A stretch of DNA of 64,000 bases. Source: Minisyncoccia bacterium (GTDB taxonomy: Bacteria > Patescibacteriota > Minisyncoccia > Phycocordibacterales > DATDWN01). The notes under the pieces were generated by a model. That model was not told the DNA's origin. It was given only the letters and a program-made list of their open reading frames with translations, and made no database searches. Location: contig JBAQUS010000011.1 of NCBI GenBank assembly GCA_049297675.1, positions 101,184 through 165,183 on the forward strand. Reading direction: 5' to 3'. Position numbers and translations under genes: made by a program. Below are positions 7,441-47,399 of the stretch, piece after piece; position 1 is the stretch's first letter; every line of letters begins with the position of its first letter.

Positions 7441-7546
7441 CGCGATACCAATTTACGAATACATGCGAATGATACGAATAAATACAAAACAGTTGCACCC
7501 ATTCGTTTTATTCGTATAATTCGTTGATTCGCATCGATATTATTAT
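7441..7546 (+). repeat. palindromic ACGAAT-triplet intergenic element (rpsL-rpsG spacer)
   Basis: gcgataccaatttacgaatacatgcgaatgatacgaataaa ... cattcgttttattcgtataattcgttgattcgcatcga; fills the entire spacer. Confidence 0.7.
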
Positions 7547-8017
7547 ATGAGAAGAAAAGTTACAAACAGAAACATAGTCAAGAAAGACAAAAAATACGAC
7601 TCCGATAAAATCGGCAAATTTATCAACTACATAATGGAGAGGGGGCAGAAAGAAACTGCCAGAGGAATTGTTTACGATGCCTTGGAAGAAGTGAAAGAGA
7701 GAACAAAGGTTGAAGATGTTATGGAAGTTTTTGATACAGCTCTGAAAAACACAGGACCTTTGACAGAAGTTCGTTCTCGAAGAGTTGGTGGTGCAAACTA
7801 TCAGATTCCCAGAGAAGTTAGACCGGAAAGAAGGTCTTTCTTGTCCATGAAATGGATAATTGAGGCTGCTCGAGGTGGAAAAGGAAAGAGTATGGCTTTA
7901 AAACTAGCAGATGAAATAATTCTAGCAAGTAAAAACGAAGGTAAGGCTGTCAAGAAGAGAGAAGATACTCATAAAATGGCTGAAGCCAATAAGGCATTTG
8001 CCCATTTTGCATGGTAA
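7547..8017 (+). CDS. rpsG: 30S ribosomal protein S7
   Basis: full-length S7 similarity (RGQKETARGIVYDALEEV ... SRRVGGANYQIPREV). Confidence 0.95.
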   Translation: MRRKVTNRNIVKKDKKYDSDKIGKFINYIMERGQKETARGIVYDALEEVKERTKVEDVMEVFDTALKNTGPLTEVRSRRVGGANYQIPREVRPERRSFLSMKWIIEAARGGKGKSMALKLADEIILASKNEGKAVKKREDTHKMAEANKAFAHFAW

Positions 8018-8050
8018 AAAAGGGCCGAAAGGCCTTTTTTACCATGCAAA
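8003..8050. terminator. roughly 46-bp near-perfect palindrome that can form a long hairpin with flanking A/T runs (bidirectional terminator) after rpsG
   Basis: ttttgcatggtaaaaaagggccgaaaggccttttttaccatgcaaaa. Confidence 0.6.
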
Positions 8051-8244
8051 ATAAATTAAACAGCGCATGGTCGAGAGGGAAAATAGTAGAAAGCTATTTT
8101 CCCTCCGGGTGAGTTTTTCAAAAATCCTCACAAAAACAGAAAAGATCTCAACACCAGGAGAAGCAAAAATAAAAATTTAATAATTAAGAATAATTAAAAC
8201 AAGTTGAGCTTTCTTGTTTTTAATGTATTATTTAGTAATTAACA

Positions 8245-8793
8245 TTGAAGCACATGAAAACTGAATCTTTAGAAGCTTTTCCACCACCATATCTAAGAAG
8301 TCTGGATGAGATCTTGGGTTTTTCGGAAATACCGGAGGATAATTTTCAAGAATTGAAGTCCAGGTATATAGAATTGTATAAAAATAGTTTTGTTAAGTCA
8401 GTAAGAGACAATGAAGAAATAGATATGGAGTTATCGGAGGAAGTTTTGGATGAAGGGGGGACTGACGGGCTATTTAATGAACTTGAGGATTATTATAAAA
8501 AAGAAATTTGGGATAAATTAGTTGACGAACTAGTAAGAGTCGCTCCAGATTTTAAAGGTTTAAAGGTTCCCTCACCACTTAGACCTGAAGATTCAAAAAT
8601 TGAATTTGATGAGGATTTAGTTGACGCAGGCTTGGATGAAAAAAATAGAGATGTGCTGGACGAATATAGAAAATTACAAAAAAGTGCTCTTGAAATGTGT
8701 CTTAAGTTTTCAAAAAGAATTTCTAGGGAGGTGTTAAGAGAAAGTGTAAAAATGGCACGTATAGAGTTAGGATTAAGAAATATTGTTAACTAA
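8245..8793 (+). CDS. hypothetical acidic protein
   Basis: ORF track; no family recognised. Confidence 0.35.
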   Translation: MKHMKTESLEAFPPPYLRSLDEILGFSEIPEDNFQELKSRYIELYKNSFVKSVRDNEEIDMELSEEVLDEGGTDGLFNELEDYYKKEIWDKLVDELVRVAPDFKGLKVPSPLRPEDSKIEFDEDLVDAGLDEKNRDVLDEYRKLQKSALEMCLKFSKRISREVLRESVKMARIELGLRNIVN

Positions 8794-8913
8794 TATTAGA
8801 TTGTAATAGAAAGGAATTTTTTTCAACATAGGAATTTCATTTTATGTGCGAACCAGCGAGGGGAGTCTTCGGTTACTCGCTTACCAATTGTGTTCTCTAT
8901 TTTTCCTAATAAA

Positions 8914-8949
8914 ATAAAGTATCATATACGCCATGGCGTATATGATACT
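8914..8949. promoter_or_regulatory. 36-bp perfect palindrome centred on CCATGG, about 80 bp upstream of the Cas2/VapD-like gene
   Basis: aaagtatcatatacgccatggcgtatatgatacttt is identical to its reverse complement. Confidence 0.5.
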
Positions 8950-9027
8950 TTTATGGTATTCTCAGGGCAGGGGAATGTTGTTATAGATTTGTAATATACT
9001 GATGCATTAAATATATAGAAATCTCAA

Positions 9028-9417
9028 ATGAAAAGAAAATACTTAAGATACAAAGGAATACGAGTCAACGCTTTTGGTATTCCTGTGTCAGGATATGTTG
9101 ATAAAAGTAAAGGCAAAAAACCTATTAAAAAGAGGGATATTTATCACACCTCTTTTCCATCAGTTTTCAAAGAGAATTCTCCTAAAAATCTTATTGTTAT
9201 GTATGATATTCCACATGAATTAAAAAAGGAAAGAGACTGGTTTCGGCGACATCTTATTAAGTTTGGATACAAAATGATACAAAAAAGTGTTTGGGTGGGA
9301 CCATCCCCACTACCAAAAGAATTCCTCAAGTATTTAGAGGAAATAAAAATTGGAAATAGGTTAAAAACCCTTAAATTAGCCAAAACATACAATCCTACTA
9401 TATCAGCCATGGCGTAA
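9028..9417 (+). CDS. Cas2/VapD-fold endoribonuclease-like protein with a basic N-terminal extension of about 55 aa; solitary (no cas1, no CRISPR array)
   Basis: NLIVMYDIPHELKKERDWFRRHLIKFGYKMIQKSVWVG ... NRLKTLKL follows the Cas2 pattern (LVxYDV ... RRLRKxLxxYGxRVQxSVF ... RIYRL). Confidence 0.4.
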   Translation: MKRKYLRYKGIRVNAFGIPVSGYVDKSKGKKPIKKRDIYHTSFPSVFKENSPKNLIVMYDIPHELKKERDWFRRHLIKFGYKMIQKSVWVGPSPLPKEFLKYLEEIKIGNRLKTLKLAKTYNPTISAMA

Positions 9418-9481
9418 ATGATGATATCTAGGATTTCATGGTTATAAAATGGTCAATTAAATATTAGCTTTTTTTGGGTAA

Positions 9482-9534
9482 CTTGCATTTTTAGTGGGGG
9501 GGTAAAATAATGGTATTAAAATTAGCTTAAAATT
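9482..9534 (+). promoter_or_regulatory. conserved promoter/leader module, copy a (TTGCAt, 7 G's, TAAAAT ... ttaaaattATG)
   Basis: cttgcatttttagtgggggggtaaaataatggtattaaaattagcttaaaatt followed by ATG at 9535. Confidence 0.45.
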
Positions 9535-10203
9535 ATGAATGAAGGAAAACTTGAAAATAGTGATGACTTATCTATTGCCCCTCAAGAAGGATTAGATGGG
9601 CAAGTTGAAGATTATGATGCAGAAAAAAATTGGCAAGAATATATAAGAGATGGACGTCGAGAGCCGATGTCTATGGATCGTATATACTATATAATCCAAC
9701 GAGAAGATGGTCGGGCAGCCAGAATGGCGTTAAGTCACGCAGTTAATAGTGAGAGAGAATTTAAAAATGGAAAAGCGTGGTCTCCTCGTTCAGGAATAGA
9801 TTTTCCAATAGATGTGTCAGGACTTAATGAAGAGGAAAAGGATAAAATAGATCTTAAAGTGGGTAGTCTTGTCAAAGCATGGATTTTAGAACACGAACAA
9901 CAACAAGAATTAATGTTAGCAAGAGAAGAAGCTTTACGTGGTAATACCACAAAACTTATGAGTCTTCTCGTGGCATCTATGAGAAACGTAATAAACTCAG
10001 AGAGTCCGGAAACAGCCTTCAAATATATTTGTGGAATATGGTCCAGGAGTGATGGGGAAGATTATGAAGCAAATGCAACAGATTCTCCTCGTGAACTGAT
10101 GGATCATCCACTTCGTTATTTACCGAGCGATGTACAAAAAAAATTTGAGGATGAGTATAAGAGAGAATTTAGGAGCATGTTGGATGAGGAAAATGAAAGG
10201 TAA
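9535..10203 (+). CDS. hypothetical acidic protein
   Basis: ORF track; no family recognised. Confidence 0.35.
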   Translation: MNEGKLENSDDLSIAPQEGLDGQVEDYDAEKNWQEYIRDGRREPMSMDRIYYIIQREDGRAARMALSHAVNSEREFKNGKAWSPRSGIDFPIDVSGLNEEEKDKIDLKVGSLVKAWILEHEQQQELMLAREEALRGNTTKLMSLLVASMRNVINSESPETAFKYICGIWSRSDGEDYEANATDSPRELMDHPLRYLPSDVQKKFEDEYKREFRSMLDEENER

Positions 10204-10290
10204 AACTAATGGATAAGCAAGGTAAGCTATTGCTTTAATCAATCCTGAAAATGTTTAAGCTAGGGGAGTCCTCGCTTAAACTCGATTTAC

Positions 10291-10566
10291 TTAAAAAAGT
10301 TCGGAATGGTTGCCAATGTCGATTAATATCAAAACGAGCTCTCTTTTTCGGATTTGATAAACTAGAAGCAGGTCACCTTTAATGTGACACTCACGGAGGT
10401 TGTGCATACTTCCATGTAAAGAATGGTCTTTGTATTTTAGTGGGAGTGTTTTTCCTGAAGCTAGTATTTCGACAGCTGTTTCGATTTCGACCCTTTTGAT
10501 CTTCCCAGAGTGCATGACTTTCTTAAGGGATTTCTCAAATCTCTTAGTGAATATTTTTTTATACAT
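10291..10566 (-). CDS. yafQ: YafQ/RelE-family mRNA interferase toxin
   Basis: TLPLKYKDHSLHGSMHNLRECHIKGDLLLVYQIRKRELVLILIDIGNHSELF matches the YafQ pattern (LPxxYKDHxLxG ... REcHI ... DxLLIY ... GTHSxLF). Confidence 0.7.
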   Translation of the reverse strand: MYKKIFTKRFEKSLKKVMHSGKIKRVEIETAVEILASGKTLPLKYKDHSLHGSMHNLRECHIKGDLLLVYQIRKRELVLILIDIGNHSELF

Positions 10567-10583
10567 TTATTTTCCACTAAAAT

Positions 10584-10859
10584 TTAGACCAAAATATCAT
10601 CAAACATTTCTCGGGTAGAAGAATATCTTTTGCCGTGCTTTAAAGCCTCCACAGCCTCCCTTTCATATTTCTCAATTATTTTAGGATTGTATTTGTGAGT
10701 AAAACCAAATGGGCAAACATAAGTAAGATTATTAGGGTCGCTTTCTCTGGCCAAAAGAAACTTTATTCCGGAAGACAAATCAAGCCCCATATTCTTAAAC
10801 ATTTTTATAGCTTTTGTTTTTGTTGCCTTGTCTATTCTAATTTGTAGTGTTGTGTCCAT
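10584..10859 (-). CDS. dinJ: DinJ/RelB-family antitoxin, partner of the YafQ toxin
   Basis: MDTTLQIRIDKATKTKAIKMFKNMGLDLSSGIKFLLARES matches DinJ; the ORF-track start at 10943 is an upstream extension. Confidence 0.65.
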   Translation of the reverse strand: MDTTLQIRIDKATKTKAIKMFKNMGLDLSSGIKFLLARESDPNNLTYVCPFGFTHKYNPKIIEKYEREAVEALKHGKRYSSTREMFDDILV

Positions 10860-10936
10860 TTGGACAGTATAAAAAAATGTAATGATAATGTCAATACATA
10901 CTTTGTTGTAAGTGAAGGTGTACTTACCTACAATGA

Positions 10937-10998
10937 CTTGCAATTTTTACGGGGGGTAAAATTGAGGTATTAAAGTTAATACTTAAAAGTATAAAATT
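10937..10998 (+). promoter_or_regulatory. conserved promoter/leader module, copy b (TTGCAA, 6 G's, TAAAAT)
   Basis: cttgcaatttttacggggggtaaaattgaggtattaaagttaatacttaaaagtataaaatt followed by ATG. Confidence 0.45.
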
Positions 10999-11409
10999 AT
11001 GGAAACATACCACGATAGTTCTGGTCAAGAAATAAGTAGGGAATCTTTTATTGAATCACAGGAGAAAGAACATGATATTGAAGAAAGACTTTTGAGAGAG
11101 TCAGGGTGGTCACCGCTAGATGTTGTTCGTACTTTCTATCTATATGATAAATATGATGAAGCTAATCGTGACCAAGCGATAGGTGTAAAAAGGACTGTCG
11201 TTGTAATTGACACAACCATTCCGTCATACGGGTTTGATCATTGGGAAATTAATGGTGATGTTTTGCCACCAGATAATTCTGCAAAAAGTATATCAGTATA
11301 TGAATGGGTGAAGAACGGTGATGAGTATAAATGGGTTGAGATCGAAAGATATAAATGTAGTTATGATGGTGGTAAGCAGGGTGAATGGAAAAGTCTAGAT
11401 CTGACATAA
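10999..11409 (+). CDS. hypothetical protein
   Basis: ORF track. Confidence 0.35.
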   Translation: METYHDSSGQEISRESFIESQEKEHDIEERLLRESGWSPLDVVRTFYLYDKYDEANRDQAIGVKRTVVVIDTTIPSYGFDHWEINGDVLPPDNSAKSISVYEWVKNGDEYKWVEIERYKCSYDGGKQGEWKSLDLT

Positions 11410-11476
11410 ATACACTAAAAGAAATCCATATAGCTCAATAATTGACTATAAGTTTATCTTAAGATAAACTTATAGT

Positions 11477-11728
11477 ATGACTAAAATCAAGGATAAAATA
11501 ATAGGGCTTAAAGAGCTTAGGGAGAATACTGAAACTTATATTTCCCAAGTGGAAAAAGGTAAGTCTTTTGTGGTTATGCGAAAGTCAAAGCCAGTTTTTA
11601 CTATTTCTCCAGTAGACGAATGGGGAGATGAGGGTACCTGGGAAACAGTCGTAGACTTTAATGAGATAAAAAAAGGTGGTGTTCCAATTGAAGATGTGAT
11701 AAGTAGTTTGAAAAGATTAAATAGATAG
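11477..11728 (+). CDS. Phd/YefM-like antitoxin
   Basis: KIIGLKELRENTETYISQVEKGKSFVVMRKSKPVFTISPVDEW fits the Phd/YefM pattern; immediately precedes a RelE/ParE toxin gene. Confidence 0.5.
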   Translation: MTKIKDKIIGLKELRENTETYISQVEKGKSFVVMRKSKPVFTISPVDEWGDEGTWETVVDFNEIKKGGVPIEDVISSLKRLNR

Positions 11729-11735
11729 CTTATTT

Positions 11736-11969
11736 ATGAATAAAATAGATAAGTTTCTGAAAAAACTAATAACAGGCGACAGAGTTTTTATTTTAAAAGT
11801 TTTGAATCAAATATATTCTGGAAATTTCGAAAATTTACACGTAAAGAAGCTAAAAGGATTTAAAAATAAATACAGAGTTAGGGTGGGTAGAATAAGGATA
11901 ATATTTACTAAAGAAAGAGAAGGAATCAGAATTGATAAATTAGATTTTAGGAGCGATAATACATATTAA
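11736..11969 (+). CDS. RelE/ParE-family toxin
   Basis: KKLKGFKNKYRVRVGRIRIIFTKEREGIRIDKLDFRSDNTY fits the LxGxxxxYRxRVGxYRIIY ... I ... HR motif. Confidence 0.6.
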   Translation: MNKIDKFLKKLITGDRVFILKVLNQIYSGNFENLHVKKLKGFKNKYRVRVGRIRIIFTKEREGIRIDKLDFRSDNTY

Positions 11970-11977
11970 CTAATCTA

Positions 11978-12172
11978 ATGGAGACATTCTGGGACTTATT
12001 AAAAGATCCGGCACATTGGTGGTTTGAGTTATTTCTCATTTTTATTTTCGACGTAGTTGTCGGACTTATTGTTTGGCCGTTTGTCCAAAAGGCACTTATT
12101 CACCATAAATCCGATCACGAAAGACTAGAGGATTTAGAGAGGGAGGTGGAAAAACTAAGAAATAAAATGTAA
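11978..12172 (+). CDS. small membrane protein, hypothetical
   Basis: ORF track; one TM helix plus a charged tail. Confidence 0.3.
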   Translation: METFWDLLKDPAHWWFELFLIFIFDVVVGLIVWPFVQKALIHHKSDHERLEDLEREVEKLRNKM

Positions 12173-12174
12173 TT

Positions 12175-12435
12175 TTATCTGTATCCATCATGGTCATCAA
12201 TTGCCAGTAAGTACACTTCGTTTTTTAGTCCATATTGAAATATTATTCTGTCTTTACGATTAATCCAAAAGGCATATTTATCGCTCAGTCTACCGTGCAG
12301 TTTATGAACTTTCAGTCGCTTGTGGTTAAGAGGGTTTTCAAACAGTTTTATTTTTTCCAAAACCTCCTCATAGAATTTATTATCCAACTTTTTTAACTGT
12401 TTAATAAATGTGTGCGTATATATAAGACTAATCAT
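12175..12435 (-). CDS. RelE/ParE-superfamily toxin
   Basis: FIKQLKKLDNKFYEEVLEKIKLFENPLNHKRLKVHKLHGRLSDKYAFWINRKDRIIFQY ... VYLLAIDDH. Confidence 0.5.
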   Translation of the reverse strand: MISLIYTHTFIKQLKKLDNKFYEEVLEKIKLFENPLNHKRLKVHKLHGRLSDKYAFWINRKDRIIFQYGLKNEVYLLAIDDHDGYR

Positions 12436-12437
12436 AT

Positions 12438-12662
12438 TTAGTCTTTAAATTTTCTAACTATTTCTCTCAGGTCTCCACTAAAGACCCTGCCATTTTTTAT
12501 ATCCTTCTCTGCTTCAAAGATATTTTTTAGCAGTTCTTCTTCTGCATATAAATCTAATGCTTGTCTGACGGCATGGGCCTTATTAGCTGCCTTACCGCTT
12601 TTTACAAGGGAAGATATAAACCTTTCATTTTTTGGTGATATGGGTACTGATATTGTAGTCAT
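12438..12662 (-). CDS. ribbon-helix-helix (CopG/ParD-like) antitoxin, partner of the 12175..12435 toxin
   Basis: MTTISVPISPKNERFISSLVKSGKAANKAHAVRQALDLYAEEE; 3-nt gap to the toxin gene. Confidence 0.5.
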   Translation of the reverse strand: MTTISVPISPKNERFISSLVKSGKAANKAHAVRQALDLYAEEELLKNIFEAEKDIKNGRVFSGDLREIVRKFKD

Positions 12663-12810
12663 ATGATAATATATTAATTTATATGATATTATCATATATT
12701 AATAAGTAACTAAATGTCAAATTTACTTACTGATATTGCTCAAAATAGTCTTTTAGTATATAGTTTTCTCGTATCCCGAGAGGGTATTTTATTTACCACA
12801 ATAAATGAAT

Positions 12811-12923
12811 CCCGTTAGAGGCCGCGGTCGCTTACGGGTTAAGGAAATTAAGTAATTAATTAAAATTATCAATATTAATAAATATGGTATGGTAACGGAA
12901 GACCGCGACCTGCCTCTAACGGG
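12811..12923 (+). promoter_or_regulatory. long imperfect inverted repeat CCCGTTAGAGGCCGCGGTCG ... CGACCGCGACCTGCCTCTAACGGG whose right arm abuts the fusA ATG
   Basis: arms at about 12811-12830 and 12900-12923 around a 69-nt AT-rich loop; ATG at 12924. Confidence 0.5.
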
Positions 12924-15065
12924 ATGAACCGCGATTACACACTAGACAAAGTTAGAAACTTCGGAATCATTGCTCATATTGATGCTGGAAAAACAACCAC
13001 ATCCGAGCGTGTGCTTTTTTATACTGGAATGACTCACAAAATAGGTGAGGTGCACGAGGGGGAGACGGTGACTGACTGGATGGAGCAGGAAAGAGAAAGA
13101 GGTATTACAATTACAGCTGCGGCTATTACCTGTTTTTGGAATCCGACATACAGAGAGAAGGGTAGCAAACCTGAGTATCGTTTTAATATTATAGATACTC
13201 CAGGGCATATTGATTTTACTGCGGAAGTAAAGAGGTCACTTAGAGTACTCGACGGGGCGGTTGTGGTTTTCGACGGAGTGGCGGGAGTAGAACCACAGTC
13301 CGAGACAAACTGGAGATATGCGGATGATGGAAATGTTCCGAGAATCTGTTTTATAAATAAACTCGATAGAACAGGAGCATCATTTGAAAGAAGTTATGCT
13401 TCTATTTTGGATAGACTAACAAAAAACGCTGTCAGGGTTCAGATTCCAATCGGTCTTGAGGACAAGTTTGAAGGAGTTATTGACCTTATGAAAATGAAAG
13501 CTTTTTACTTTGAGGGAAACATGGGTATGCAAATAAAGGAAGCTGAAATTCCTGCTGAGCTTCTAGATGAGGCCAAAAAATATAGAGCAGAGCTTGTCGA
13601 AAAAGTTGTTGGAGAAGATGACAATCTAATGTCTGCGTATCTTGATGGTAAAGAGCCAACTACCGAGGAGCTCAAATTAACCCTGAGAAAAGCTACCCTT
13701 GCTGTAAAACTTGTACCAGTTTTTGCTGGATCAGCACTGAAAAACAAGGGAGTTCAGCTAGTTTTGGATGGTGTTGTTGATTACCTACCATCACCTTTGG
13801 ATATTCCTCCTGTACACGGAACTGATCCTAAAACAGGTGAAGATATTTTCCGAAACGCATCTGACTCAGAGCCATTCTCAGCACTTGCTTTCAAGCTTCA
13901 AAACGATCCTTTCGTTGGACAATTAACTTTCTTTAGAGTTTACTCTGGGACTTTAGAGGCAGGCACTTATGTCTACAATTCGACTACCGGAGAGAAAGAG
14001 CGTCTGGGAAGAATTGTTCGCCTTCAGGCGGATAAGCGTGAGGAAGTTAAAAAAGTTTTTGCGGGGGAGATCGCTGCGGCAGTAGGTCTGAAGTCAGCTA
14101 AAACGTCTCATACGCTATGTGATGAAAATAATCCGATTGTTCTTGATCCTATCAAGTTTGTTGATCCAGTGGTGTCTTTGCGTGTTGAGCCGAAGACCAA
14201 AGCTGATCAGGAAAAAATGGGTATGGCACTTAAAAAACTTTCTGACGAAGATCCAACTTTTGTTATTTCATCAAACTCTGAAACAGGCGAGAGTATTATT
14301 TCTGGAATGGGAGAGCTCCACCTTGAGATCATGGTTGATCGTATGAAGAGAGAATTTGGTGTAGAGGTAAACGTCGGCAAGCCACAAGTGGCATACAGAG
14401 AAACTATATTAGGTTCTGCAGAGGCTGAACACAAATACATAAAACAAACTGGTGGTAAGGGTCAATACGGACACGTTAAATTGACCATCAAACCACTTGA
14501 GAAAATAGAGGAAGGGGCAAAAATCCCTAAAAATGTTAAGAGATACGATGACTTCGAATTTATAGATTCAATCAAAGGTGGTGTTATTCCGCAGGAATTC
14601 ATTCCAGCGGTTGAAAAGGGGGTTCATGAAGCAATGGATCGTGGAATAGTGGCGGGTTACAAAATGGTAAATATTTCTTGCGAACTGACATTTGGATCGT
14701 ACCACGACGTGGACTCATCCGAAATTGCATACAAGATCGCTGCCTCGCAAGCTTTTCAGGAGGCTGCTAGGAGAGCTAGACCAGTAATACTTGAGCCAAT
14801 CATGAAAGTTGAGGCTGTTATGCCTGAGCAGTTCATGGGAGACATTACAGGTTCGCTTTCAGGAAAGAGAGGACAAATAGAAGGTATGGACGAGAGAGGA
14901 ATGCTTCGAGTAATCCACGCCAAAGTTCCACTTTCTGAAATGTTTGGATATACAACTGACATACGTTCAATGACCCAAGGCCGTGGCTCAGTCCAAATGG
15001 AATTTGATCACTATGAAGTAGTACCACCAAACGTGGAGAAAACAATCATTGAATCGAGGAAATAA
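12924..15065 (+). CDS. fusA: elongation factor G
   Basis: [29 protein letters not shown]-domain motifs and full-length EF-G similarity. Confidence 0.95.
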
Positions 15066-15960
15066 AATTATTTTTATTGAATTGAGGTATAATGAAAGAA
15101 TGTCAGAATCATTAGATAACCCAGTAGTTGTCGCAGAACCAACTATAGACAATACTGAAGAAAGATCTAGATTGCTAACTGAATTGGCTGAGAAGCTCGA
15201 GGGCTTTTTTTATGATCCAGATCAGAATGTTCCAGGTATAGAAAGAGAGAATTATGTTGATAATTTGTTAATAAATAGAAAAGTTATTGACTTTATTGAA
15301 CATAATCCAGGCAGTTTTGACTTGTTTTTTATTTATTTAAGTCGTCAAGTTTACGATAAGGATCAGCTGGAGTCATTGCTAAAAAACATTATTCTAAGAG
15401 AAGCTGAGAAAACCAAAAATCAAGTAGAATTGGTTGAAAGACTATGGGTTAGTCCACTGGCTTCAGTAGAAGAATATGAGTTGGGTGTTTACAAAGAGCA
15501 AATAGAGAGTCAGGTCAGAGATGCTGTCTTGGAATTAAAAAGAAAGGGTTATAGACCATTTGGATCTGGTTTCGGAGACCTAGTATCCGGTACACAAGCA
15601 ATACTTTTGAATAAGGAAGGAGTTGAAATAAGTTTGATTACAGAGAATTTAAGAGGTGAGAATGTGGAAATAGTTGAAGAAGAAGATAGAATACAAATAA
15701 TATTTAAGCCGACAGACTCAGAAACATCTATGGAGGAATTAAAAAAAGTTTGGAATAGAATAGTTTCAAAAATTCCATCAGTAAAGGATAATTCAAAATT
15801 AAGGTTGTCAGATAATGGTAGGCAAGGCAGTGAGTTTAGAGAAACTCAAAACAAAATCAAAAAAGGACAGAATGCTTGGTTAAGAAACGGATTAGCTTTT
15901 GTTGATGGAAAAGTAGTTGAAATGTCGTATGAGGATTTTCAGATTTTAATGAATAAATGA
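15049..15960 (+). CDS. hypothetical protein (probable start at the internal Met near 15100)
   Basis: ORF track; no family recognised. Confidence 0.35.
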
Positions 15961-15985
15961 TTTGAGAGAAGAACTACAGGGATTC

Positions 15986-16085
15986 ATCCCGTTAGAGTTT
16001 TGCTTGTTAACAATGTATTTTAAGTAATAAACAGGTTATCCCATAATATTTTTATATATGTTTGATTATTAAACTCTAACGGGAT
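15986..16085 (+). promoter_or_regulatory. 15-bp perfect inverted repeat ATCCCGTTAGAGTTT / AAACTCTAACGGGAT enclosing a 70-nt AT-rich loop, ending 11 nt before the ATG at 16097
   Basis: arms at about 15986-16000 and 16071-16085. Confidence 0.5.
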
Positions 16086-16096
16086 AAAATTAGTCA

Positions 16097-17362
16097 ATGG
16101 TTACTACTACTGACTTAAAAAAACCTATACCCTCGCCTTTTGATATTTTGACTTCTCAAACTGAGAAAGTTGAAAAAAGTGAAACAAGTGATATTTATAA
16201 TATTCCTATAAAGAAGATATTTGACAGTGTTCCGAAGCCGACTGAACTAGAGCCTTTGATGGGAGCTGATGGTTCGCAAAAAATTCCAATAAACAAAAAA
16301 ACATCACCGAAAAAAAGTTTCTTTGTTCCACAAATTGCATTAGACTTTGTAGAGAGTCTAATAAGAAATAATAGACCGCTCAAATCTCTGAGGTTTGATT
16401 TGGAGGAGTCAAATTCAATCGAAGAAGCTTTGGAACACATTGATGATTCAAAACTTCTATTAATTTCTGAAAAACAAGATTTACTCAAGATTCTCGGTTT
16501 TGAAGATAAGAGTCCTGAGGCAGAAGTAATTTTGGACGAGGAGCTTGCAAAAGCAAGGAAAAATTATATTTCTTTACAAGGTCCTTACATAAGAAAAAAT
16601 CAGATTCACAAAGAGAGCTACGCAAAGATCATGGCTGATTTTGGAGTAGAAAAAGAGATGCCTAAGAGAGATGTACCGAAAGAAGTTATGGAAGCAAGAT
16701 TGGAATACGAAGATTTGAAATTGAGGAAGAAAGGTCTTCTAGGTGAAAACAGTACAGAGTTTATTGTCACGGAACAAGAATTTTTTTCCGACGAGTTGTT
16801 CAAGATCGTCAAACCAGAAGCTTCTCCATACATTAGTAAGCTTTCAAACATATGGAATCATTCGGAGAATGATAGTTCAATTGATTTTTTACTACTAGAC
16901 ATTGATTTTTTGAAAAAAACAGAGTCACAAGAGGCAGTCTTTGAGGGGTTGAGAACTGAAATAAATCTTACAACCACTGAAGTTTCACCTATTCTAGCGA
17001 ATAAAGTTGAAAACGATACGATACTTGCAAAAAGAGCTGAAAATGCTGAAAACCTGCCTGTGGAGAACTTCTCTGTACAAAAGGAGGTCTTTGAGCAAGA
17101 ATCGGCTAGTCCGAAAGAAGAGGTATTCCCCTCAGAATACGAGGGTAACCAGATAAAGGTAATAAAAGAGGGTATAGATGACACTTTTATTATTAGGGTA
17201 ACATTCAATGATAAGGACATTGCTCTAGGTGAAATCGTAAAAAATAACCTAAAAATAAAGTTAAAACCGGAGTTTAAGGCAGGATGGTTTTATGTAAAAA
17301 CACCAGAAGAGAGAGCTTTTAAGGAGAAAATATTGCCATTTCTTAAAACTCTCAAATCTTAA
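16097..17362 (+). CDS. hypothetical acidic protein
   Basis: ORF track. Confidence 0.35.
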   Translation: MVTTTDLKKPIPSPFDILTSQTEKVEKSETSDIYNIPIKKIFDSVPKPTELEPLMGADGSQKIPINKKTSPKKSFFVPQIALDFVESLIRNNRPLKSLRFDLEESNSIEEALEHIDDSKLLLISEKQDLLKILGFEDKSPEAEVILDEELAKARKNYISLQGPYIRKNQIHKESYAKIMADFGVEKEMPKRDVPKEVMEARLEYEDLKLRKKGLLGENSTEFIVTEQEFFSDELFKIVKPEASPYISKLSNIWNHSENDSSIDFLLLDIDFLKKTESQEAVFEGLRTEINLTTTEVSPILANKVENDTILAKRAENAENLPVENFSVQKEVFEQESASPKEEVFPSEYEGNQIKVIKEGIDDTFIIRVTFNDKDIALGEIVKNNLKIKLKPEFKAGWFYVKTPEERAFKEKILPFLKTLKS

Positions 17363-17365
17363 TAT

Positions 17366-17653
17366 TTGATGAATTTATCAAAAGATATAATAAATGAATG
17401 GGACCTTGGTACTTTGTCCAAGGAAAGAAAGACTGACGTAGTCAGTCGGATTAGCCGTGTATTGTTCCAGGCACTTATGGTTAGATCACTTGATATACTA
17501 TCTGATTCAGAGCAGTCAGAACTTGATGACTTGATGAGTCAGGATTCAACAACGTCTGAGGATGTTCTTATTTTTTTAAAATCTAAAATTCCAACATTTA
17601 GTGTTCTGGTGAAGGAAGAGAGAGAAAGTTTAAAAAGAAGTATGCAGATTTAG
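17366..17653 (+). CDS. hypothetical protein
   Basis: ORF track. Confidence 0.3.
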   Translation: MMNLSKDIINEWDLGTLSKERKTDVVSRISRVLFQALMVRSLDILSDSEQSELDDLMSQDSTTSEDVLIFLKSKIPTFSVLVKEERESLKRSMQI

Positions 17654-17954
17654 TTCGGGGGTTGACTATTGAATATTTTTTGTCTAGTATTATTGTGTCG
17701 CTTTTGCGACAGTTTTTTCTCTGCTAATTTTCGTAAGTTCCCAAAATTTAGATTTCTCGAACACTAAGTTTTTGGAGTTTCCAAAATGGCAAATTATTAG
17801 AAGATTAATTAAAACAAACACGACGCAAATTACGAATAAAAACGAACCCGTCCGAATGGATTCATCCGGGCGGATGACACGAATCAAATTCTAAATAATT
17901 GAATCTTATTCGTAAATTCGTACTCATTCGTGGATTGGTGTCGAGATAAATATT

Positions 17955-19368: not shown

Positions 19369-19375
19369 TGGTACC

Positions 19376-21022: not shown

Positions 21023-21230
21023 TGGAAAGTGTGACTAGAACAATTTTATTAAAAATTGTTCGTCCGACCGATTGTATTCAATTGGTTTAGGAAAGTGTGA
21101 AAGTACGACTCTTGAATTCCAAACACATATCTGCTATTGTACTCCAATCGCCTCTGGGCGTTTTTATACGCCTTATCTAGTATTCATTCGTATCATTCGC
21201 ATGAATTCGTAGATTGGTATCGCACTTACT

Positions 21231-22927: not shown

Positions 22928-23032
22928 AGCGATACAAATATACGAATGACATGCGAATGATACGAATTAATAAAATACACTTGCACCCATTCGTTTTATT
23001 CGTATAATTCGTAGGTTCGCATCGATATTATT
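22928..23032 (+). repeat. palindromic ACGAAT-triplet intergenic element (rplW-rplB spacer)
   Basis: agcgatacaaatatacgaatgacatgcgaatgatacgaat ... cattcgttttattcgtataattcgtaggttcgcatcgat. Confidence 0.7.
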
Positions 23033-27769: not shown

Positions 27770-27959
27770 TTTTTTTACCTGCCATAAGTTAAAAAGTTGA
27801 CATTATAACCTATTTTGTATAGTATGTTTGGCACATAAGAGCCATTACCTCTTAGGTGAAGTTTTGTGTGGTATTCGCAAAATGCCTCTACAAAGAGCGC
27901 TTTTTCTTTTGAGTTTATTCGTTTCATTCGTATGAATTCGTATATTAGCATCGCTTAAT

Positions 27960-28298: not shown

Positions 28299-28410
28299 AT
28301 TAACGCGATGCAAATATACGAATACATACGAATGAAATGAATAGATGTAGTCAATTACCCCGTTAATTTGTATCATTCGTAAAATTCGTAGATTAGTATC
28401 GACATCATAT
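28299..28410 (+). repeat. palindromic ACGAAT-triplet intergenic element (rpsS-rplV spacer)
   Basis: aacgcgatgcaaatatacgaatacatacgaatgaaatgaat ... gtatcattcgtaaaattcgtagattagtatcga. Confidence 0.7.
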
Positions 28411-29558: not shown

Positions 29559-29631
29559 ACATGACACCAATACACGAATGAAAACGAATGACACGAATAA
29601 AAGAATAGTTAGAGGTAATTAAAAATCTGCT

Positions 29632-30054: not shown

Positions 30055-30161
30055 AAGCGATGCAAATATACGAAAACATACGAATGATACGAAATATAAG
30101 AGAACATTTGCACCCATTCGTTCTATTAGTATAATTCGTTGATTCGTATCGATATCATAAT
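30055..30161 (+). repeat. palindromic ACGAAT-triplet intergenic element (rplP-rpmC spacer)
   Basis: aagcgatgcaaatatacgaaaacatacgaatgatacgaaat ... cattcgttctattagtataattcgttgattcgtatcgat. Confidence 0.7.
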
Positions 30162-31181: not shown

Positions 31182-31288
31182 TGCGATGCAAATATACGAA
31201 TACATGCGAATTATACGAATAAAAAAAAGTGTGTGTTGCGTTTATTCGTTTCATTCGTATAATTCGTAGATTAGTATCGAAAACATTT
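31182..31288 (+). repeat. palindromic ACGAAT-triplet intergenic element (rplN-rplX spacer)
   Basis: tgcgatgcaaatatacgaatacatgcgaattatacgaat ... cgtttattcgtttcattcgtataattcgtagattagtatcga. Confidence 0.7.
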
Positions 31289-31507: not shown

Positions 31508-31618
31508 AAAAGCGATACAAATATACGAATGACATGCGAATTATACGAATTAATACCAAACATATCTTGCATTCATTCGTTTCATTCGTATAATTCGTAG
31601 ATTAGTATCGATATAAAC
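31508..31618 (+). repeat. palindromic ACGAAT-triplet intergenic element (rplX-rplE spacer)
   Basis: agcgatacaaatatacgaatgacatgcgaattatacgaat ... cattcgtttcattcgtataattcgtagattagtatcga. Confidence 0.7.
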
Positions 31619-33740: not shown

Positions 33741-33772
33741 CCCACGAATGAATACCCGCGAATCTTAACGAA

Positions 33773-34315
33773 TTGAATACAATGTCACGAATAGGAAAAA
33801 AAATAATAATAATTCCAGAGAAGACAGAAGTAACTATTTCTGGTGGCGTAGTTTCTGTAAAGGGACCCCTCGGAACAATTTCTAAATCATTTAAAAGTAA
33901 TATAGAAATTGTGATTCAAGGTAAAGAAATAAAACTAAGTCCGAAAACCGAATCCCTAGAGAATAAGGCTTTGTGGGGGACATACGGATCTCACCTAAAC
34001 AATATGATTGCTGGGGTTAACACTCTATACATTAAGAAGCTAATATTAGAAGGAATAGGTTATAAGTCTGAAGTAAAGAGCAACAATCTAGTATTGGCAC
34101 TTGGTTTCTCACATCCTGTCATCGTTTCAATACCTGAGGGTATTAAAGTTACGGCAGAAAAAAATGTTATCTCTGTAACAGGCATAGACAAAGAGCTTGT
34201 GGGCGAGTTTACAGCATCTGTTAGAAGTTTAAAGAAGCCTGAGCCATATAAAGGTAAGGGTATGAGGTATGAGGGCGAAGTAATAAAGAGAAAACAAGGT
34301 AAGAAAACAGCCTAA
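33773..34315 (+). CDS. rplF: 50S ribosomal protein L6
   Basis: SRIGKKIIIIPEKTEVTISGGVVSVKGPLG ... full-length L6. Confidence 0.9.
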   Translation: MNTMSRIGKKIIIIPEKTEVTISGGVVSVKGPLGTISKSFKSNIEIVIQGKEIKLSPKTESLENKALWGTYGSHLNNMIAGVNTLYIKKLILEGIGYKSEVKSNNLVLALGFSHPVIVSIPEGIKVTAEKNVISVTGIDKELVGEFTASVRSLKKPEPYKGKGMRYEGEVIKRKQGKKTA

Positions 34316-37065: not shown

Positions 37066-37164
37066 GGGAGTTCATAAAGTTACCAAGTTTCTAAAGTTAT
37101 AAAGTTCACGAATTCAACTTTGTAAACTTTTTACTTTACAAACTTTATAAACTATAATGCTTTC

Positions 37165-42568: not shown

Positions 42569-42694
42569 TTAATTTTGGTTTTGAATTATACATTTTCACT
42601 AAGCGCTTTGATGCTTGGCGGATTTCGTTTTTTAGACTAAAATGGGTGTAATAAATTTATTTTACTTTATAAACTTTAAGAACTTTATAACTTT

Positions 42695-43312
42695 ATGAAC
42701 TCGTCTACGACCCATTCAAAAAAAGAAAGAACACTTGTAATTATTAAACCTGATGCGATTCAGAGAACTTTAACAGGCGAAGTGGTTTCTCGTTTAGAGA
42801 GAGTTGGTTTAAAACTTATTGCAATGAAGTTGATTGTGGCTACTGCCGATCATATCGAAAAGCATTACACCCTAGACCCAGATTGGCGGCGAGTAACAGG
42901 AGAAAAAACTATCTCAAGTTATAAAAAGAAAGGTCTACCCCCTCCATCTGAAGATCCCTTTGAAATAACCACCAAGCTTCTTATAAAGCTTAAAAAATAT
43001 ATGGTTAGTGGCCCGATTATTCCGATGGTTTGGGAAGGAGCACATGCAGTAGAAATTGTAAGAAAGTTAATTGGAGGTACAGAACCTCTGACGTCTGACG
43101 TGGGTACTATACGTGGGGATTATATGCTCGATTCGTATTCTATGTCAGACGAAGATAATAGATCTTTAAGAAATATTGCTCATGCGTCTGGTTCAGTAAC
43201 AGAAGCTAACATGGAAATTGCTCATTGGTTTAAAGACGAAGAAATTGTTAATTATCGTCTTGTTCAAGACGAGATATTGTATGACGTAAATTTGGACGGG
43301 ATACTAGAGTAA
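42695..43312 (+). CDS. ndk: nucleoside diphosphate kinase (with an internal insertion)
   Basis: ERTLVIIKPDAIQRTLTGEVVSRLERVGLKLIAMKL. Confidence 0.85.
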   Translation: MNSSTTHSKKERTLVIIKPDAIQRTLTGEVVSRLERVGLKLIAMKLIVATADHIEKHYTLDPDWRRVTGEKTISSYKKKGLPPPSEDPFEITTKLLIKLKKYMVSGPIIPMVWEGAHAVEIVRKLIGGTEPLTSDVGTIRGDYMLDSYSMSDEDNRSLRNIAHASGSVTEANMEIAHWFKDEEIVNYRLVQDEILYDVNLDGILE

Positions 43313-43320
43313 AATCTCGA

Positions 43321-43425
43321 CAAACCAAAACCTTTTTAGAGACTCTCGGAGGCTGACGAGCCGAGAGTGAGCAAATTTCTAGCCCAGAAATTATGTGTGC
43401 TCTAAAAAGGTTTTGGTTAGTAAGA
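43321..43425 (+). repeat. copy 1 of an ~85-bp direct repeat containing a nested inverted repeat
   Basis: ttttagagactctcggaggctgacgagccgagagtgagcaaatttctagcccagaaattatgtgtgctctaaaaag. Confidence 0.55.
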
Positions 43426-43717
43426 GATTTTTTACAACCTATCTCAGATTTTTTTCAAGTTGTGTCAGGTCTAGTGAAAGGTATAATTATATGGGGTTAC
43501 ATTAGATATTTTCTACCTAAAATTTTTTTAGGGAGCCCGAATCTTTGTGTCGCGATGAGCGTTTACTCGTTCTGACTTACACATATGAGGGCACCCACCT
43601 GCGGTAAAACGTAGGGGAATATCTATGTGACCCCACTAAAGGCCCCGCCCCTGAAGTATTGGCGGAGTTTTTAGTAAGAGAAGTTTGTTGTACAATGTAT
43701 TAACCGTGAATTAAAAA

Positions 43718-43842
43718 ACTCGTCGAAAACATAATTTTTTAGAGACTCTCGGAGGCTGACGAGCCGAGAGTGAGCAAATTTCTAGCTCAGAAATTATGTG
43801 TGCTCTAAAAAGTTATGTTGAGTAAGAGTTTTGTAATCAACA
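43718..43842 (+). repeat. copy 2 of the same direct repeat, flanked by the conserved gene-proximal module ...gttgagtaagagttttgtaatcaacaATG
   Basis: near-identical to copy 1 (one C/T difference in the core); the same upstream module is found before comEC at 1836-1975. Confidence 0.55.
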
Positions 43843-45682: not shown

Positions 45683-45992
45683 TGTATTAATTAATATTAA
45701 CTATAAAAACATGGGTCTAGAAGGACAGCCAAAAATGACATGGGATGAGATGGTAACAAGTATAGAAGTTGGTCCGATATTAGATAGAAAAGTTATGGAG
45801 TTTTTAAGCAAACACAACAAGGAATATATAACTGCTGAGTTCAGTGAAGTACTATTTGAAGGTGAAATAATAAAATCGAGTAGGACCGGAGAACTTATAC
45901 GTCCATCTGCTATGATAACTGATCCAAACGAAAAGGCAAAAATACTTGAAGCTGTTTATGAGGAATTAGAAAAAAGTCAAACAGACGAATAA
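45675..45992 (+). CDS. hypothetical protein
   Basis: ORF track. Confidence 0.3.
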   Translation: MYNVLININYKNMGLEGQPKMTWDEMVTSIEVGPILDRKVMEFLSKHNKEYITAEFSEVLFEGEIIKSSRTGELIRPSAMITDPNEKAKILEAVYEELEKSQTDE

Positions 45993-46583
45993 ATGGACCC
46001 AAATATTCCAATTCAAATCCAAAACCCTCTTCCGCCAGTACCACAAAAACACCACTATTTTGTCATAGTTTTGGTTCTGATTTGTGTTCTTCTCCTTATG
46101 TCAGGATACTTGGTTTTCCAGAATGTCAGAGAGGAGCAAAAAGAAGTAGTGGTAGTTTCAGAAAGTGTCACAGTTCCCCAAGATGACATTTCGACTTGGA
46201 AAACATACAGAAATGAAGAGTATGGGTTTGAGTTTAAGTATCCATCCGATTGGGAAATTATAAACAATGGTTTAATAAAGCCTAATGGTAGAGAGGAAGA
46301 ATCTGAAAAAATATATTTCTTTCCAGACTTCAATAATGATAATTTAGAAATTGAAGCTTGGTTTGTGCAGCTCAATGGATACTCTGACTCACATTCTCTG
46401 GTTGAGATCGATGGAGTCAGAGCTATTAGATCAAAGGAAAGTCATGATATTTCAGGTATTGTCACTTATATACTCCTAAAAACAATACCAAATAGGGCGG
46501 TTCTAAATTTTCAAATTCGGGGGTCTTCTCCTGAAGGATTGAAAATATATGACCAAATTCTCTCAACTTTTAAGTTTATTTAG
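45993..46583 (+). CDS. hypothetical membrane-anchored protein
   Basis: ORF track; one N-terminal TM helix. Confidence 0.35.
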   Translation: MDPNIPIQIQNPLPPVPQKHHYFVIVLVLICVLLLMSGYLVFQNVREEQKEVVVVSESVTVPQDDISTWKTYRNEEYGFEFKYPSDWEIINNGLIKPNGREEESEKIYFFPDFNNDNLEIEAWFVQLNGYSDSHSLVEIDGVRAIRSKESHDISGIVTYILLKTIPNRAVLNFQIRGSSPEGLKIYDQILSTFKFI

Positions 46584-46920
46584 CTAACTCAACCACTTTC
46601 TTAAACGTCTCGGGATTTTGTTCCACCAAACCAGCTAGGATTTTTCGATCCAAAAGTACACCTTTCTTTTTCAGTCCGCCCATAAGTTTCGAGTACGATG
46701 TGCCGAGCTCTTTTGCACCATAAGAAATGCGAATATTCCACATCTTTCGAGCGTCGCCCTTCTTATCTCTCCTATGAGCAAAAGCGTAAGCTCCAGCGTG
46801 GTAGAGGGCTTCCCAAGCTTCTCTTTCCTTGGATTTTCTTCCATGTCTAAAACCCTTTGTTTTTCTCAAAACATTCTTTCTTCCCTTCAGTGCATTGACC
46901 CCCTTTTTTACTCTAGTCAT
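46576..46920 (-). CDS. rplT: 50S ribosomal protein L20
   Basis: MTRVKKGVNALKGRKNVLRKTKGFRHGRKSKEREA ... AHRRDKKGDARKMWNIRISYGAK. Confidence 0.9.
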   Translation of the reverse strand: MTRVKKGVNALKGRKNVLRKTKGFRHGRKSKEREAWEALYHAGAYAFAHRRDKKGDARKMWNIRISYGAKELGTSYSKLMGGLKKKGVLLDRKILAGLVEQNPETFKKVVELAK

Positions 46921-47066
46921 GTTTTTGGTGTCGATACTAATCTACGAATGAAACGAAGTTAGATACCCTTGACGAATAGGGCATACGAATTTATTTGTAA
47001 TATTCGTATGCAATTCGTATATTGGTATCGCTTCATATTCGCATGTATTCGTATATTTGTATCGCG
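46921..47066 (-). repeat. long (~140 nt) copy of the palindromic ACGAAT element in the rplT-rpmI spacer
   Basis: differs at a single position from the copy at 47256-47399. Confidence 0.7.
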
Positions 47067-47255
47067 TTACTTTTTAATATAAAACGCTCTATCTTTATTA
47101 CTAATTTGAAAAGCCACTGATCTCTTCTTGGCTAACTGTGATCTTCGGCTCTCTTTGGCATTGAAATGGTTTTGACCAGTTTTTCTGGCAGTTATCTTTC
47201 CATTCTTGCTGACCTTCAGCCTTTTGGTAAATGATTTGTTTGTTTTTGTTGACAT
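47067..47255 (-). CDS. rpmI: 50S ribosomal protein L35
   Basis: 62-aa basic protein KRLKVSKNGKITARKTGQNHFNAKESRRSQLAKKR in the conserved infC-rpmI-rplT order. Confidence 0.75.
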   Translation of the reverse strand: MSTKTNKSFTKRLKVSKNGKITARKTGQNHFNAKESRRSQLAKKRSVAFQISNKDRAFYIKK

Positions 47256-47399
47256 AAATGGTGTCGATACTAATCTACGAATGAAACGAAGTTAGATACC
47301 CTTAACGAATAGGGCATACGAATTTATTTGTAATATTCGTATGCAATTCGTATATTGGTATCGCTTCATATTCGCATGTATTCGTATATTTGTATCGCG
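47256..47399 (-). repeat. second long copy of the palindromic ACGAAT element (rpmI-infC spacer)
   Basis: about 99% identical to 46921-47062. Confidence 0.7.

Follow-up and report, generated by a model that had tools for sequence, protein, structure and literature searches.

A 64,000-nucleotide stretch of the genome of a Minisyncoccia bacterium (assembly GCA_049297675.1, contig JBAQUS010000011.1, positions 101,184 to 165,183 of the forward strand), here called the window, carries palindromic elements built from ACGAAT-type repeats in the spacers of its ribosomal-protein operons. These ACGAAT elements are insertions of a repeat family found across the Candidate Phyla Radiation (CPR); a periodic heptad is conserved in them, and the longer form of the family is a PD-(D/E)XK gene bounded by the same arms. 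We favor the reading, to which we give a probability of roughly 60%, that the copies of ~100 nt lacking an open reading frame (ORF) belong to a hairpin-forming repeat family that is mobile or was so recently, that they are non-autonomous derivatives which the nuclease of the longer form maintains or moves, and that the RNA hairpin makes the insertions harmless. The system would then be REPIN/RAYT-like with a different class of enzyme, and it is apparently undescribed: neither the element nor its link to a nuclease was found in the open-access literature.

A complete element consists of a left arm, GCGATRCNAATNTACGAAT-n4-5-GCGAAT-n2-3-TACGAAT, a loop of 15-30 nt and a right arm that approximates the reverse complement of the left. 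In each arm, 3-4 (at most 6) heptads T-R-C-G-A-A-T form an array with a spacing of 9-10 bp, and the two arrays are mutually inverted. An earlier note, made from the sequence alone, had listed 14 spacers with such elements and regarded them as a true repeat family with two near-complementary arms. The counts bear this out: the triplet ACGAAT-N3-8-CGAAT-N3-8-ACGAAT occurs 11 times in the window and not once in 100 shuffles, and paired CGAAT motifs number 37 against 0.7 expected. When copies were placed with an arm hidden Markov model (HMM) and a covariance model, an element was located at all the listed spacers, the one between rpsH and rplF being marginal, and every flanking gene that had been named was confirmed by Pfam. 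Of the 14 copies in 64 kb, six are canonical and complete, two on the minus strand are composite and two more are full but degenerate; the rest are two solo right arms, one solo left arm and one marginal run of units. The note had remarked that some spacers hold one arm only, and these last four copies, at rplC, rpsS, rpsC-rplP and rpsH-rplF, are of that kind. Its description of the boundaries is also upheld, with heptad-bearing spacers of 105-112 nt, left ends 0-5 nt past the stop codon, right ends 7-11 nt ahead of the ATG, and an orientation that follows transcription in all eight well-defined copies.

Comparison with related genomes identifies the elements as insertions. The L2 protein of the window reaches at most 89% identity in the protein collection, with Candidatus Paceibacterota as the best named matches, and the S10-spc operons of relatives were retrieved via their L2 proteins (identities of 89% for L001-L004, 84% for L005, 82% for L205, 82% for the P0013 contig and ~80% for L007). 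The junctions in question measure 0-32 nt in L001-L005, L205 and the P0013 contig, in the last case as read from gene coordinates, and no arms were detected at the orthologous spacers of L001-L005 and L205, for which the DNA was examined. BLASTN alignments of the flanking genes, which share 70-83% nucleotide identity with L001-L005, L205 and L206, break exactly at the elements, where the window has 102-127 extra bases and the relatives have 0-32 nt. The cleanest insertion site is the rplN-rplX spacer, which holds a full copy (31182..31284, plus strand, placed at 31182-31280 by the models; covariance model 119.7 bits): a relative reads TAA-ATTT-ATG and the window TAA-[103 nt]-ATTT-ATG, the gap being 103 nt as opposed to 0 nt in L001. 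Full copies on the plus strand likewise account for the rpsS-rplV spacer (28304..28401, 108.8 bits; gap of 127 nt versus 28 nt in L001), the rplP-rpmC spacer (30056..30152, 103.4 bits, with several decayed heptads; 110 nt versus 17 nt), the rplX-rplE spacer (31511..31611, 113.9 bits; 110 nt versus 9 nt) and the rplW-rplB spacer (22928..23025, 115.6 bits), whose orthologue spans 4-27 nt in L001-L005, L205 and L206.

The filled and empty forms of the TAA|ATTT junction indicate insertion directly past the stop codon without target duplication. No target-site duplication was found at this clean junction, nor around two near-identical composite copies that flank rpmI on the minus strand. These lie in the rpmI-rplT spacer (46923..47067; covariance model 54.8 bits; hairpin -45.5 kcal/mol, z = -7.2), where a truncated outer left arm is followed by an inner palindrome and an outer right arm, and in the infC-rpmI spacer (47256..47400; 58.4 bits). 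They agree at 143 of 144 positions, and the identity ends a few bases beyond the arms. The pair, already known to differ at one base, points to recent duplication or mobility, and mobility is backed by the comparison of filled and empty spacers. The more distant L007 has elements in its rplW-rplB and rpsS-rplV spacers, with loops different from those of the window; since nearer relatives are empty there, occupancy is patchy. The absence in relatives was initially read as the mark of a private, lineage-specific miniature inverted-repeat transposable element (MITE). This reading was rejected because a genome scan revealed a CPR-wide family. As to the classical hallmarks of a MITE, the inverted arms are present but the target-site duplication is absent, and a longer unit of ~450-470 bp with the same ends does exist, although its ORF is not a DDE transposase.

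In the genome scan, a strict arm pattern, CGATRCNAATNNACGAAT-N3-6-CGAAT, matched at least 119 stretches in 596 Gb, against ~9 chance matches estimated under equal base frequencies. The matches listed come nearly all from CPR metagenome-assembled genomes, namely Zambryski-, Doudna-, Moran-, Woese-, Collier-, Roizman-, Jorgensen-, Falkow-, Taylor-, Gracili- and Saccharibacteria; a few of them carry non-CPR labels, for which we suspect mis-binned contigs. The complete two-arm architecture recurs among these listed matches. Across the window and the retrieved loci, the arm HMM detected 270 arms that pair into 82 full elements, and the covariance model detected ~100 full elements, each scoring on both strands. 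When loops are counted as well, copies that share a locus are more alike (identity 0.80) than copies from different loci (0.68; p = 4e-19, the copies of one genome not being independent); each genome has its own subfamily. Such genome-specific subfamilies, the near-identical pair and the composite or nested structure of the rpmI-flanking copies are signs of recent amplification. Two other origins were considered and rejected. Phage carriers are not indicated by the mere 3 matches in 2.9 million viral contigs, and TIGR guide-RNA arrays do not fit an element of 7-nt conserved units 2-4 nt apart without spacer-like segments.

At six loci, two arms stand 376-411 nt apart around a single ORF of 125-135 aa. 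The enclosed ORF matches Pfam PF13366, PDDEXK_3 (E = 1e-19), and NCBIfam TIGR04256, 'GxxExxY protein'. The full-length form measures ~450-470 bp, and nucleotide homology between such loci stops at the arms. Gene and arms are interlocked: the ORF begins in or just past the left arm (in L211 the ATG lies within it), and its last residues (..KP-IRV-IR-xNS) and TAG stop are encoded by ATTCGT units of the right arm. Short copies retain ATTCG-TAG-ATT in the arm beside the downstream gene, and this TAGATT, as a relic of the ORF stop, would explain why short copies have a definable orientation along their host genes. The association was also recovered in the reverse direction. Among 80 metagenomic PDDEXK_3 loci found by protein similarity alone, 55 have an upstream arm, 63 a downstream arm (some low-scoring matches of this kind overlapping the ORF 3' end, which is itself arm-encoded) and 48 both, correctly inverted; few arms occur elsewhere in these loci. 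The ORF is co-directional with both neighbors in 49 of 55 loci. The nusG-[element]-rplK junction holds 26 of the 86 ORF-bearing copies, with NusG proteins there 60-100% identical, and a site shared by such diverged genomes looks like that of a long-resident copy. In L128, nusG is separated from the arm-flanked PDDEXK_3 gene by three additional arms (1273-1396), which suggests that short copies accumulate beside an ORF-bearing one.

The protein has the features of the PD-(D/E)XK nuclease superfamily. The catalytic signature D68...(D/E)78-x-K80 is conserved in 33 sequences, and the predicted fold, with the core alpha-beta arrangement and D...(D/E)xK motif of the superfamily, is nearest to Cas4, Dna2 and restriction-type nucleases. 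Sequence searches with PDDEXK_3 gave no match in the PDB, no match in PADLOC and one weak match to a PHROG family of unknown function, and the open-access literature holds practically nothing on PDDEXK_3/GxxExxY.

Compared with random positions, arm ends are found much more often at a distance of 0-7 nt from a stop codon or of 3-12 nt from an ATG. All 40 full elements that could be classified unambiguously lie between a stop and a start of co-directional genes, none being divergent and none convergent; junctions in the same loci are 81% co-directional, 10% convergent and 9% divergent, which gives P ~ 2e-4 for 40 of 40. Within the window the element precedes 13 of 30 starts of translation genes versus 1 of 45 others (p = 1e-5). 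The proposed tie to ribosomal-protein operons extends beyond the window, where 20 of 53 downstream genes (~38%) encode ribosomal proteins, but it is not a specific one: EF-Tu, GroEL, RecA, RpoB, NusA (twice), SecA, SecE and LepA genes are also preceded by elements (identities assigned by reading the sequence, ten of them checked with Pfam), rRNA genes contain them, and the family is CPR-wide.

Three copies lie within rRNA genes. In L029 the element replaces the loop of a 23S helix at positions ~1206-1226 of the large-subunit model, which in our own reading of the alignment is helix 45, a classical site of intervening sequences (IVS). L009 has its copy in the 3' domain of the 23S gene, where it borders a 367-nt insertion close to model position 2620, and the copy of L026 is within the 16S gene. 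Copies survive only in transcribed non-coding slots, namely stop-start spacers, leaders and rRNA loops. The element was said to leave no Shine-Dalgarno sequence before the next gene. Such sequences are indeed lacking there, but they are nearly absent genome-wide, GGAG, GAGG, AGGA or GGGG occurring at -20..-4 in 4 of 75 window genes versus 17.7% of random 17-mers, so their absence is not a property of the element.

This distribution invites the explanation that the element is a host cis-acting RNA, in which the mRNA hairpin is itself selected as an RNase III site, as a stabilizer of the 3' end of the upstream cistron or as a device that positions re-initiation without a Shine-Dalgarno sequence, mobility being only its origin. 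The exclusive use of co-directional spacers, the orientation along transcription, the short constant distance to the ATG (kept even by solo arms that end long leaders), the genome poor in Shine-Dalgarno sequences and the copy at a classical RNase III intervening-sequence site, 23S helix 45, all agree with such a role, and mobile hairpins able to bind RNase III are already known in the Correia elements (PMC2649163). As the earlier note stated, stable hairpins can form: those of the window copies are long and imperfect, with energies of -27 to -45 kcal/mol and z = -4 to -7 relative to dinucleotide shuffles. The note further raised cleavage of the stems as RNase III sites and a search for compensatory changes, and named conservation of primary sequence but never of pairing as an outcome that would speak against its reading. 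Such an outcome is essentially what is seen.

RNAalifold on six window copies gave 32 pairs with 0 compensated and a covariation term that was positive, that is, penalizing. In 80 elements, the variable columns of an element's own two arms match no better than those of randomly paired arms, and at several columns worse; in a model-based alignment of 150 hits, 90.7% of cells are paired versus 89.3% after shuffling. Heptad changes in ~100 elements from many genomes break the pair in 121 cells and are compensated in 4. Where the G of CGAAT has changed, giving CTAAT or CAAAT, the partner is unchanged (columns 22/254, 40/231 and 50/221). Nor is there a strand preference of the kind expected of a transcript. 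The minimum free energy is -32.6 kcal/mol for the sense and -33.6 kcal/mol for the antisense strand, with 157 and 208 G-U pairs, respectively. A wobble signature of a sense-strand RNA hairpin was therefore rejected, the antisense being equally stable with more G-U pairs. Asymmetries between arms that follow gene orientation are confined to two spacer positions; one is occupied by the G in the TAGATT sequence of the downstream arm.

As judged from these alignments, conservation concerns the heptad T-R-C-G-A-A-T, which recurs with a period of 9-10 bp in each of the two inverted arrays. An array that is conserved when its pairing is not is what a sequence-specific protein would read, and the hairpin would be a consequence of the inverted arrays. 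A hairpin does not need periodic heptads within its arms, and the closest relatives express the same operons with spacers of 0-30 nt and no element. Neither of the marks of a cis-regulatory RNA was found: compensatory substitutions are absent, and the orthologous positions, filled in L007, are unfilled in L001-L005, L205 and the P0013 contig. In these respects the element seems unlike an RNA whose pairing is under selection, be it a hairpin dedicated to RNase III or one that regulates ribosomal-protein operons, and we consider the cis-acting RNA unlikely.

Conserved heptads with a period of 9-10 bp in inverted arrays, kept as primary sequence and not as pairs, would also suit DNA operators bound by a regulator, possibly PDDEXK_3 itself as encoded in the nusG-rplK operon, that co-regulates transcription of translation genes. 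Protein binding to the ACGAAT triplet, raised in the earlier note, is plausible and now has a candidate in PDDEXK_3. The enrichment before translation and housekeeping genes and the position of the arm-flanked gene in a core transcription and translation operon, which suits autoregulation, fit this alternative, as does TTGCAC-N16-TATAAT, which spans the loop and right arm of five window copies. This sequence is, however, private to the window subfamily. A promoter within the element was rejected since the motif is absent from other subfamilies, its scan score is weak and elements never occupy divergent spacers; across the family, no shared sigma-70-type module (-35 and -10 hexamers separated by 16-18 nt) was found, and promoter-like sites in the window scan number 59 versus 46 +/- 7 in shuffles (~1.8 sd), with at most 3 within elements. 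Instead of the divergent spacers that contain promoters, elements occupy positions between co-transcribed cistrons or downstream of better promoter-like sites. Close relatives differ in occupancy of the same operons, unlike a conserved regulon, copies lie inside rRNA genes, and the conserved catalytic residues indicate cleavage and not merely binding. We regard operator arrays as quite unlikely.

A third alternative is RNA-mediated spread, in which an intron- or IVS-like RNA inserts into highly expressed transcripts and is fixed by reverse transcription and recombination, with the PD-(D/E)XK protein acting on RNA or target DNA as in retroelements with restriction-like endonucleases. Insertion only into transcribed, highly expressed regions in the sense orientation, rRNA helix loops included, and the lack of a target-site duplication are consistent with it, and a reverse-transcriptase gene (26777-27769) is present in the same operon of the window beside a solo arm. 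Among the 86 ORF-bearing loci, however, no reverse transcriptase is linked to the element, and the best structural matches of the protein are DNA nucleases. The loops are unconserved and there is no ribozyme-like conserved core; Rfam returned no match at the gathering threshold and, at E <= 1, only spurious microRNA-hairpin matches. This alternative appears very unlikely.

Under the reading we favor, that of a mobile family served by its PD-(D/E)XK gene, the element would insert directly after stop codons, into spacers of 4-30 nt in co-directional, highly expressed and conserved operons, and also into rRNA helix loops. The heptad arrays would be putative recognition sites of the nuclease, which would act in trans on the short copies; we infer that it mobilizes them. 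Once inserted, the element would be co-transcribed with its neighbors, and an imperfect hairpin of 35-40 bp could return the stop codon and the ATG to within ~10 nt of each other. This restored proximity, which may be why the insertions are harmless, would keep translational coupling in a genome without Shine-Dalgarno sequences. In rRNA the element would behave as an intervening sequence, and insertions elsewhere would be purged by selection.

Several points weigh against this reading. What ties PDDEXK_3 to the short copies is solely its physical linkage to the arms, the gene was not found within the 64-kb window (the DNA compared being these 64 kb and stretches of at most 20 kb from each of the other genomes), and we know of no precedent for a stand-alone transposase of 125 aa with a single PD-(D/E)XK domain. 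That the ORF-bearing copy is often located at nusG-rplK is explained by vertical inheritance of a resident gene no less readily than by an active transposon. A purely tolerated selfish element should fill convergent spacers too; that none was found there suggests some mechanism or function linked to transcription units. The reading accounts neither for this nor for the preference for highly expressed, conserved genes or for integration by a 125-aa nuclease. In addition, gene calls in the retrieved loci come from a simple ORF heuristic, most elements enter alignment A5 on both strands, and the p-values are optimistic because copies of one genome are not independent.

Among known systems, the closest parallel is that of repetitive extragenic palindromes (REP) and REPINs, short extragenic palindromes served by the small transposase gene RAYT (PMC3116915, PMC3337134, bioRxiv 10.1101/2021.07.10.451892). 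The ACGAAT family shares with it extragenic palindromes of two inverted, hairpin-capable repeat units (here 270 arms yielding 82 paired elements), numerous ORF-less copies in each genome that form subfamilies particular to it, and a small gene (~125-180 aa) flanked by the same repeats, often at one conserved chromosomal site and vertically inherited in appearance. It differs in that the flanked gene is a PD-(D/E)XK nuclease (PDDEXK_3) rather than an HUH/Y1 IS200-like transposase, in that its arms hold 3-6 periodic heptads rather than a single REP of 20-25 nt, and in that its copies, in CPR hosts, are confined to junctions of co-directional genes and to the interior of rRNA genes.

The intervening sequences of 23S rRNA are a second parallel, being hairpin insertions of ~100-200 nt in rRNA helix loops, some of them with a small ORF of unknown function in the loop. 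The L029 copy in the helix-45 loop is such an insertion, helices 25 and 45 being the defining sites. In contrast to these, the ACGAAT family resides mostly between protein-coding cistrons, and its ORF is PDDEXK_3 and not the four-helix-bundle protein 23S_rRNA_IVP. At IVS sites of CPR rRNA genes, Tsurumaki et al. described many short insertions that contain no ORF and are not introns, and assigned them to no class (PMC11270868).

Correia elements (CREE) of Neisseria also measure ~100-150 bp, have inverted ends, are co-transcribed, form hairpins able to bind RNase III and can create promoter-like hexamers, comparable to TTGCAC-N16-TATAAT in the window subfamily. Unlike the elements described here, they duplicate a TA target, lack a known cognate protein gene, are not limited to co-directional junctions and are unrelated in sequence. 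The ERIC, RUP and BOX elements can be grouped with Correia for this comparison. IS200/IS605 and other single-stranded DNA transposons share the hairpin ends, insertion 3' of a short motif without target duplication and a very small transposase; the ACGAAT family differs from them in lacking an HUH transposase, in its symmetric heptad arrays and in apparently having a stop codon or spacer as target instead of a fixed tetranucleotide. Free-standing homing endonuclease genes resemble the longer form in being small nuclease genes between conserved genes (here nusG and rplK), co-oriented and patchy in distribution. Homing, however, is directed at a single site and leaves many near-identical ORF-less copies at different junctions unexplained.

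More generally, and tentatively, at somewhat less than even odds in our estimate, PDDEXK_3/'GxxExxY' proteins may be the enzymes of an unrecognized, REPIN/RAYT-like class of hairpin mobile elements, whose heptad palindromes colonize the stop-start spacers of core operons and rRNA loops throughout the CPR, and which would account as well for the short CPR rRNA insertions that had been left without a class. If so, the orphan GxxExxY/PDDEXK_3 family would gain its first genetic context and a candidate substrate, the TRCGAAT heptad arrays; a new enzyme class would join the few systems in which a small resident gene maintains non-autonomous palindromes; and inter-cistron palindromes and short insertions in CPR rRNA genes would be one element. 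Tolerance of 100-nt hairpins before ribosomal-protein ATGs bears on initiation and coupling in the CPR, with its tiny genomes, lack of Shine-Dalgarno sequences and spacers of 0-30 nt. The repeats probably fragment CPR assemblies and can mislead the annotation of intergenic 'RNA motifs'.

The remaining copies in the window are all on the plus strand. The sixth canonical copy fills the rpsL-rpsG spacer (7441..7537, left arm 7441-7482, right arm 7498-7537; covariance model 114.8 bits; hairpin -27.1 kcal/mol, z = -4.5). Of the two degenerate full copies, that in the rnhA-comEC spacer (~1745..1830; Pfam flanks RNase_H and Competence) has a recognizable right arm at 1791-1825 (arm HMM 1825-1791, 29 bits) and a decayed left arm, and that upstream of tuf (17818..17952; right arm 17905-17939; covariance model 32 bits, arm HMM 23.8 bits) has its left arm interrupted by a small GC-rich hairpin. 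Solo right, downstream-type arms precede rplC (21183..21224; arm HMM 49.6 bits), ending 7 nt before the ATG, and rpsS (27914..27955; 45.2 bits), ending 5 nt before it. Promoter-like sites lie upstream of the tuf copy (TTGACT-17-TAGTAT, 17662-17690) and of the rpsS arm (TTGACA-17-TAGTAT, 27797-27825). A solo left, upstream-type arm occupies the rpsC-rplP spacer (29567..29600; arm HMM 17.5 bits; triplet match 29574-29598), and the 41-nt rpsH-rplF spacer is filled by a weak left-arm-like run of three CGAAT units (33745..33780) that falls below the arm-HMM threshold and whose membership is marginal.

The str and S10 operons of the window are broken by islands of small, mostly unannotated genes (8018-12923, 15049-17653, 19158-20551 and 23876-27913). 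The possibility that these islands are cargo between separated arms was rejected: the stop codons of rplB, rpsG and tuf in the window have no left arm after them, and the widely spaced arm pairs of L074 and L119 appear to be solo arms that arose independently. From their translations, some island genes resemble toxin-antitoxin pairs; the protein encoded at 9028-9417 is Cas2-like and matches Pfam PaaX_M. The reverse transcriptase mentioned above (RVT_1) is an island gene, and the stretch of its island at 24-26 kb has a GC content of 0.44 versus ~0.37 elsewhere.

Other repeats share the spacers. A second, unrelated palindromic family of ~100-160 nt occurs at 1818-1975, 43320-43421 and 43710-43837, with arms ..AAAACTCGWCGAAAACA..TTTTYTAGAG and CTCTAAAAA..GTTGAGTAAGAGTTTTGTAAT around a conserved core, CTCTCGGAGGCTGACGAGCCGAGAGTGAGC; at rnhA-comEC, a member of this second family directly adjoins the ACGAAT element. 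Between two of its copies, 43491-43637 on the plus strand weakly resembles 6S RNA (RF00013, 21 bits where the gathering threshold is 46, E = 0.035). Direct, non-inverted arrays of the heptad AACTTTA with a period of 9-10 nt stand directly before the starts of rpsC, rpsH, adk, ndk and others (28861-28898, 33300-33340, 37120-37160, 42664-42695 and 6249-6288, and in reverse-complement form 21850-21880, 22628-22645 and 59560-59598), and also before ATGs in two other CPR genomes (L037 near 5156 and L103 near 759). The array is a second motif of the type 'heptad array before ATG' in a genome without Shine-Dalgarno sequences. The sequence CTCTAACGGG directly precedes the ATG of fusA (12895-12923) and of ORF 60976 (60947-60975), and occurs at ~16070-16096, ~17 nt before the ATG of ORF 16097. 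In L207, a 100-nt repeat with CCCGTTAGAG, the complement of CTCTAACGGG, fills three ribosomal-protein spacers (1620-1722, 6383-6486 and 10981-11083). Different relatives have different repeat families in the same kind of spacer; the rplC-rplD spacer of L206 (8899-9015) holds a palindrome of TTTCAAT/ATTGAAA heptads that has an ACGAAT-like architecture with another heptad. The rpsQ-rplN spacer of the window is filled by a 66-nt inverted repeat (30596-30812; 76% complementary, 85 nt apart) that is unrelated to the ACGAAT family and has only a spurious microRNA-precursor match in Rfam.

Three further genes of the window deserve mention. The S10 protein (20552-21022) has an N-terminal extension of ~55 aa rich in Lys, Ala and Pro, so that the Pfam match covers residues 60-154 only; the S10 proteins of relatives are also long, at 134-138 aa. 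A tRNA-Ile with the anticodon UAU is encoded at 55295-55369, which is unusual in that bacteria normally read AUA with a lysidine-modified CAU anticodon. A zinc-finger gene of the dksA/traR type (32351-32785) lies between rplE and rpsN, within the spc operon.

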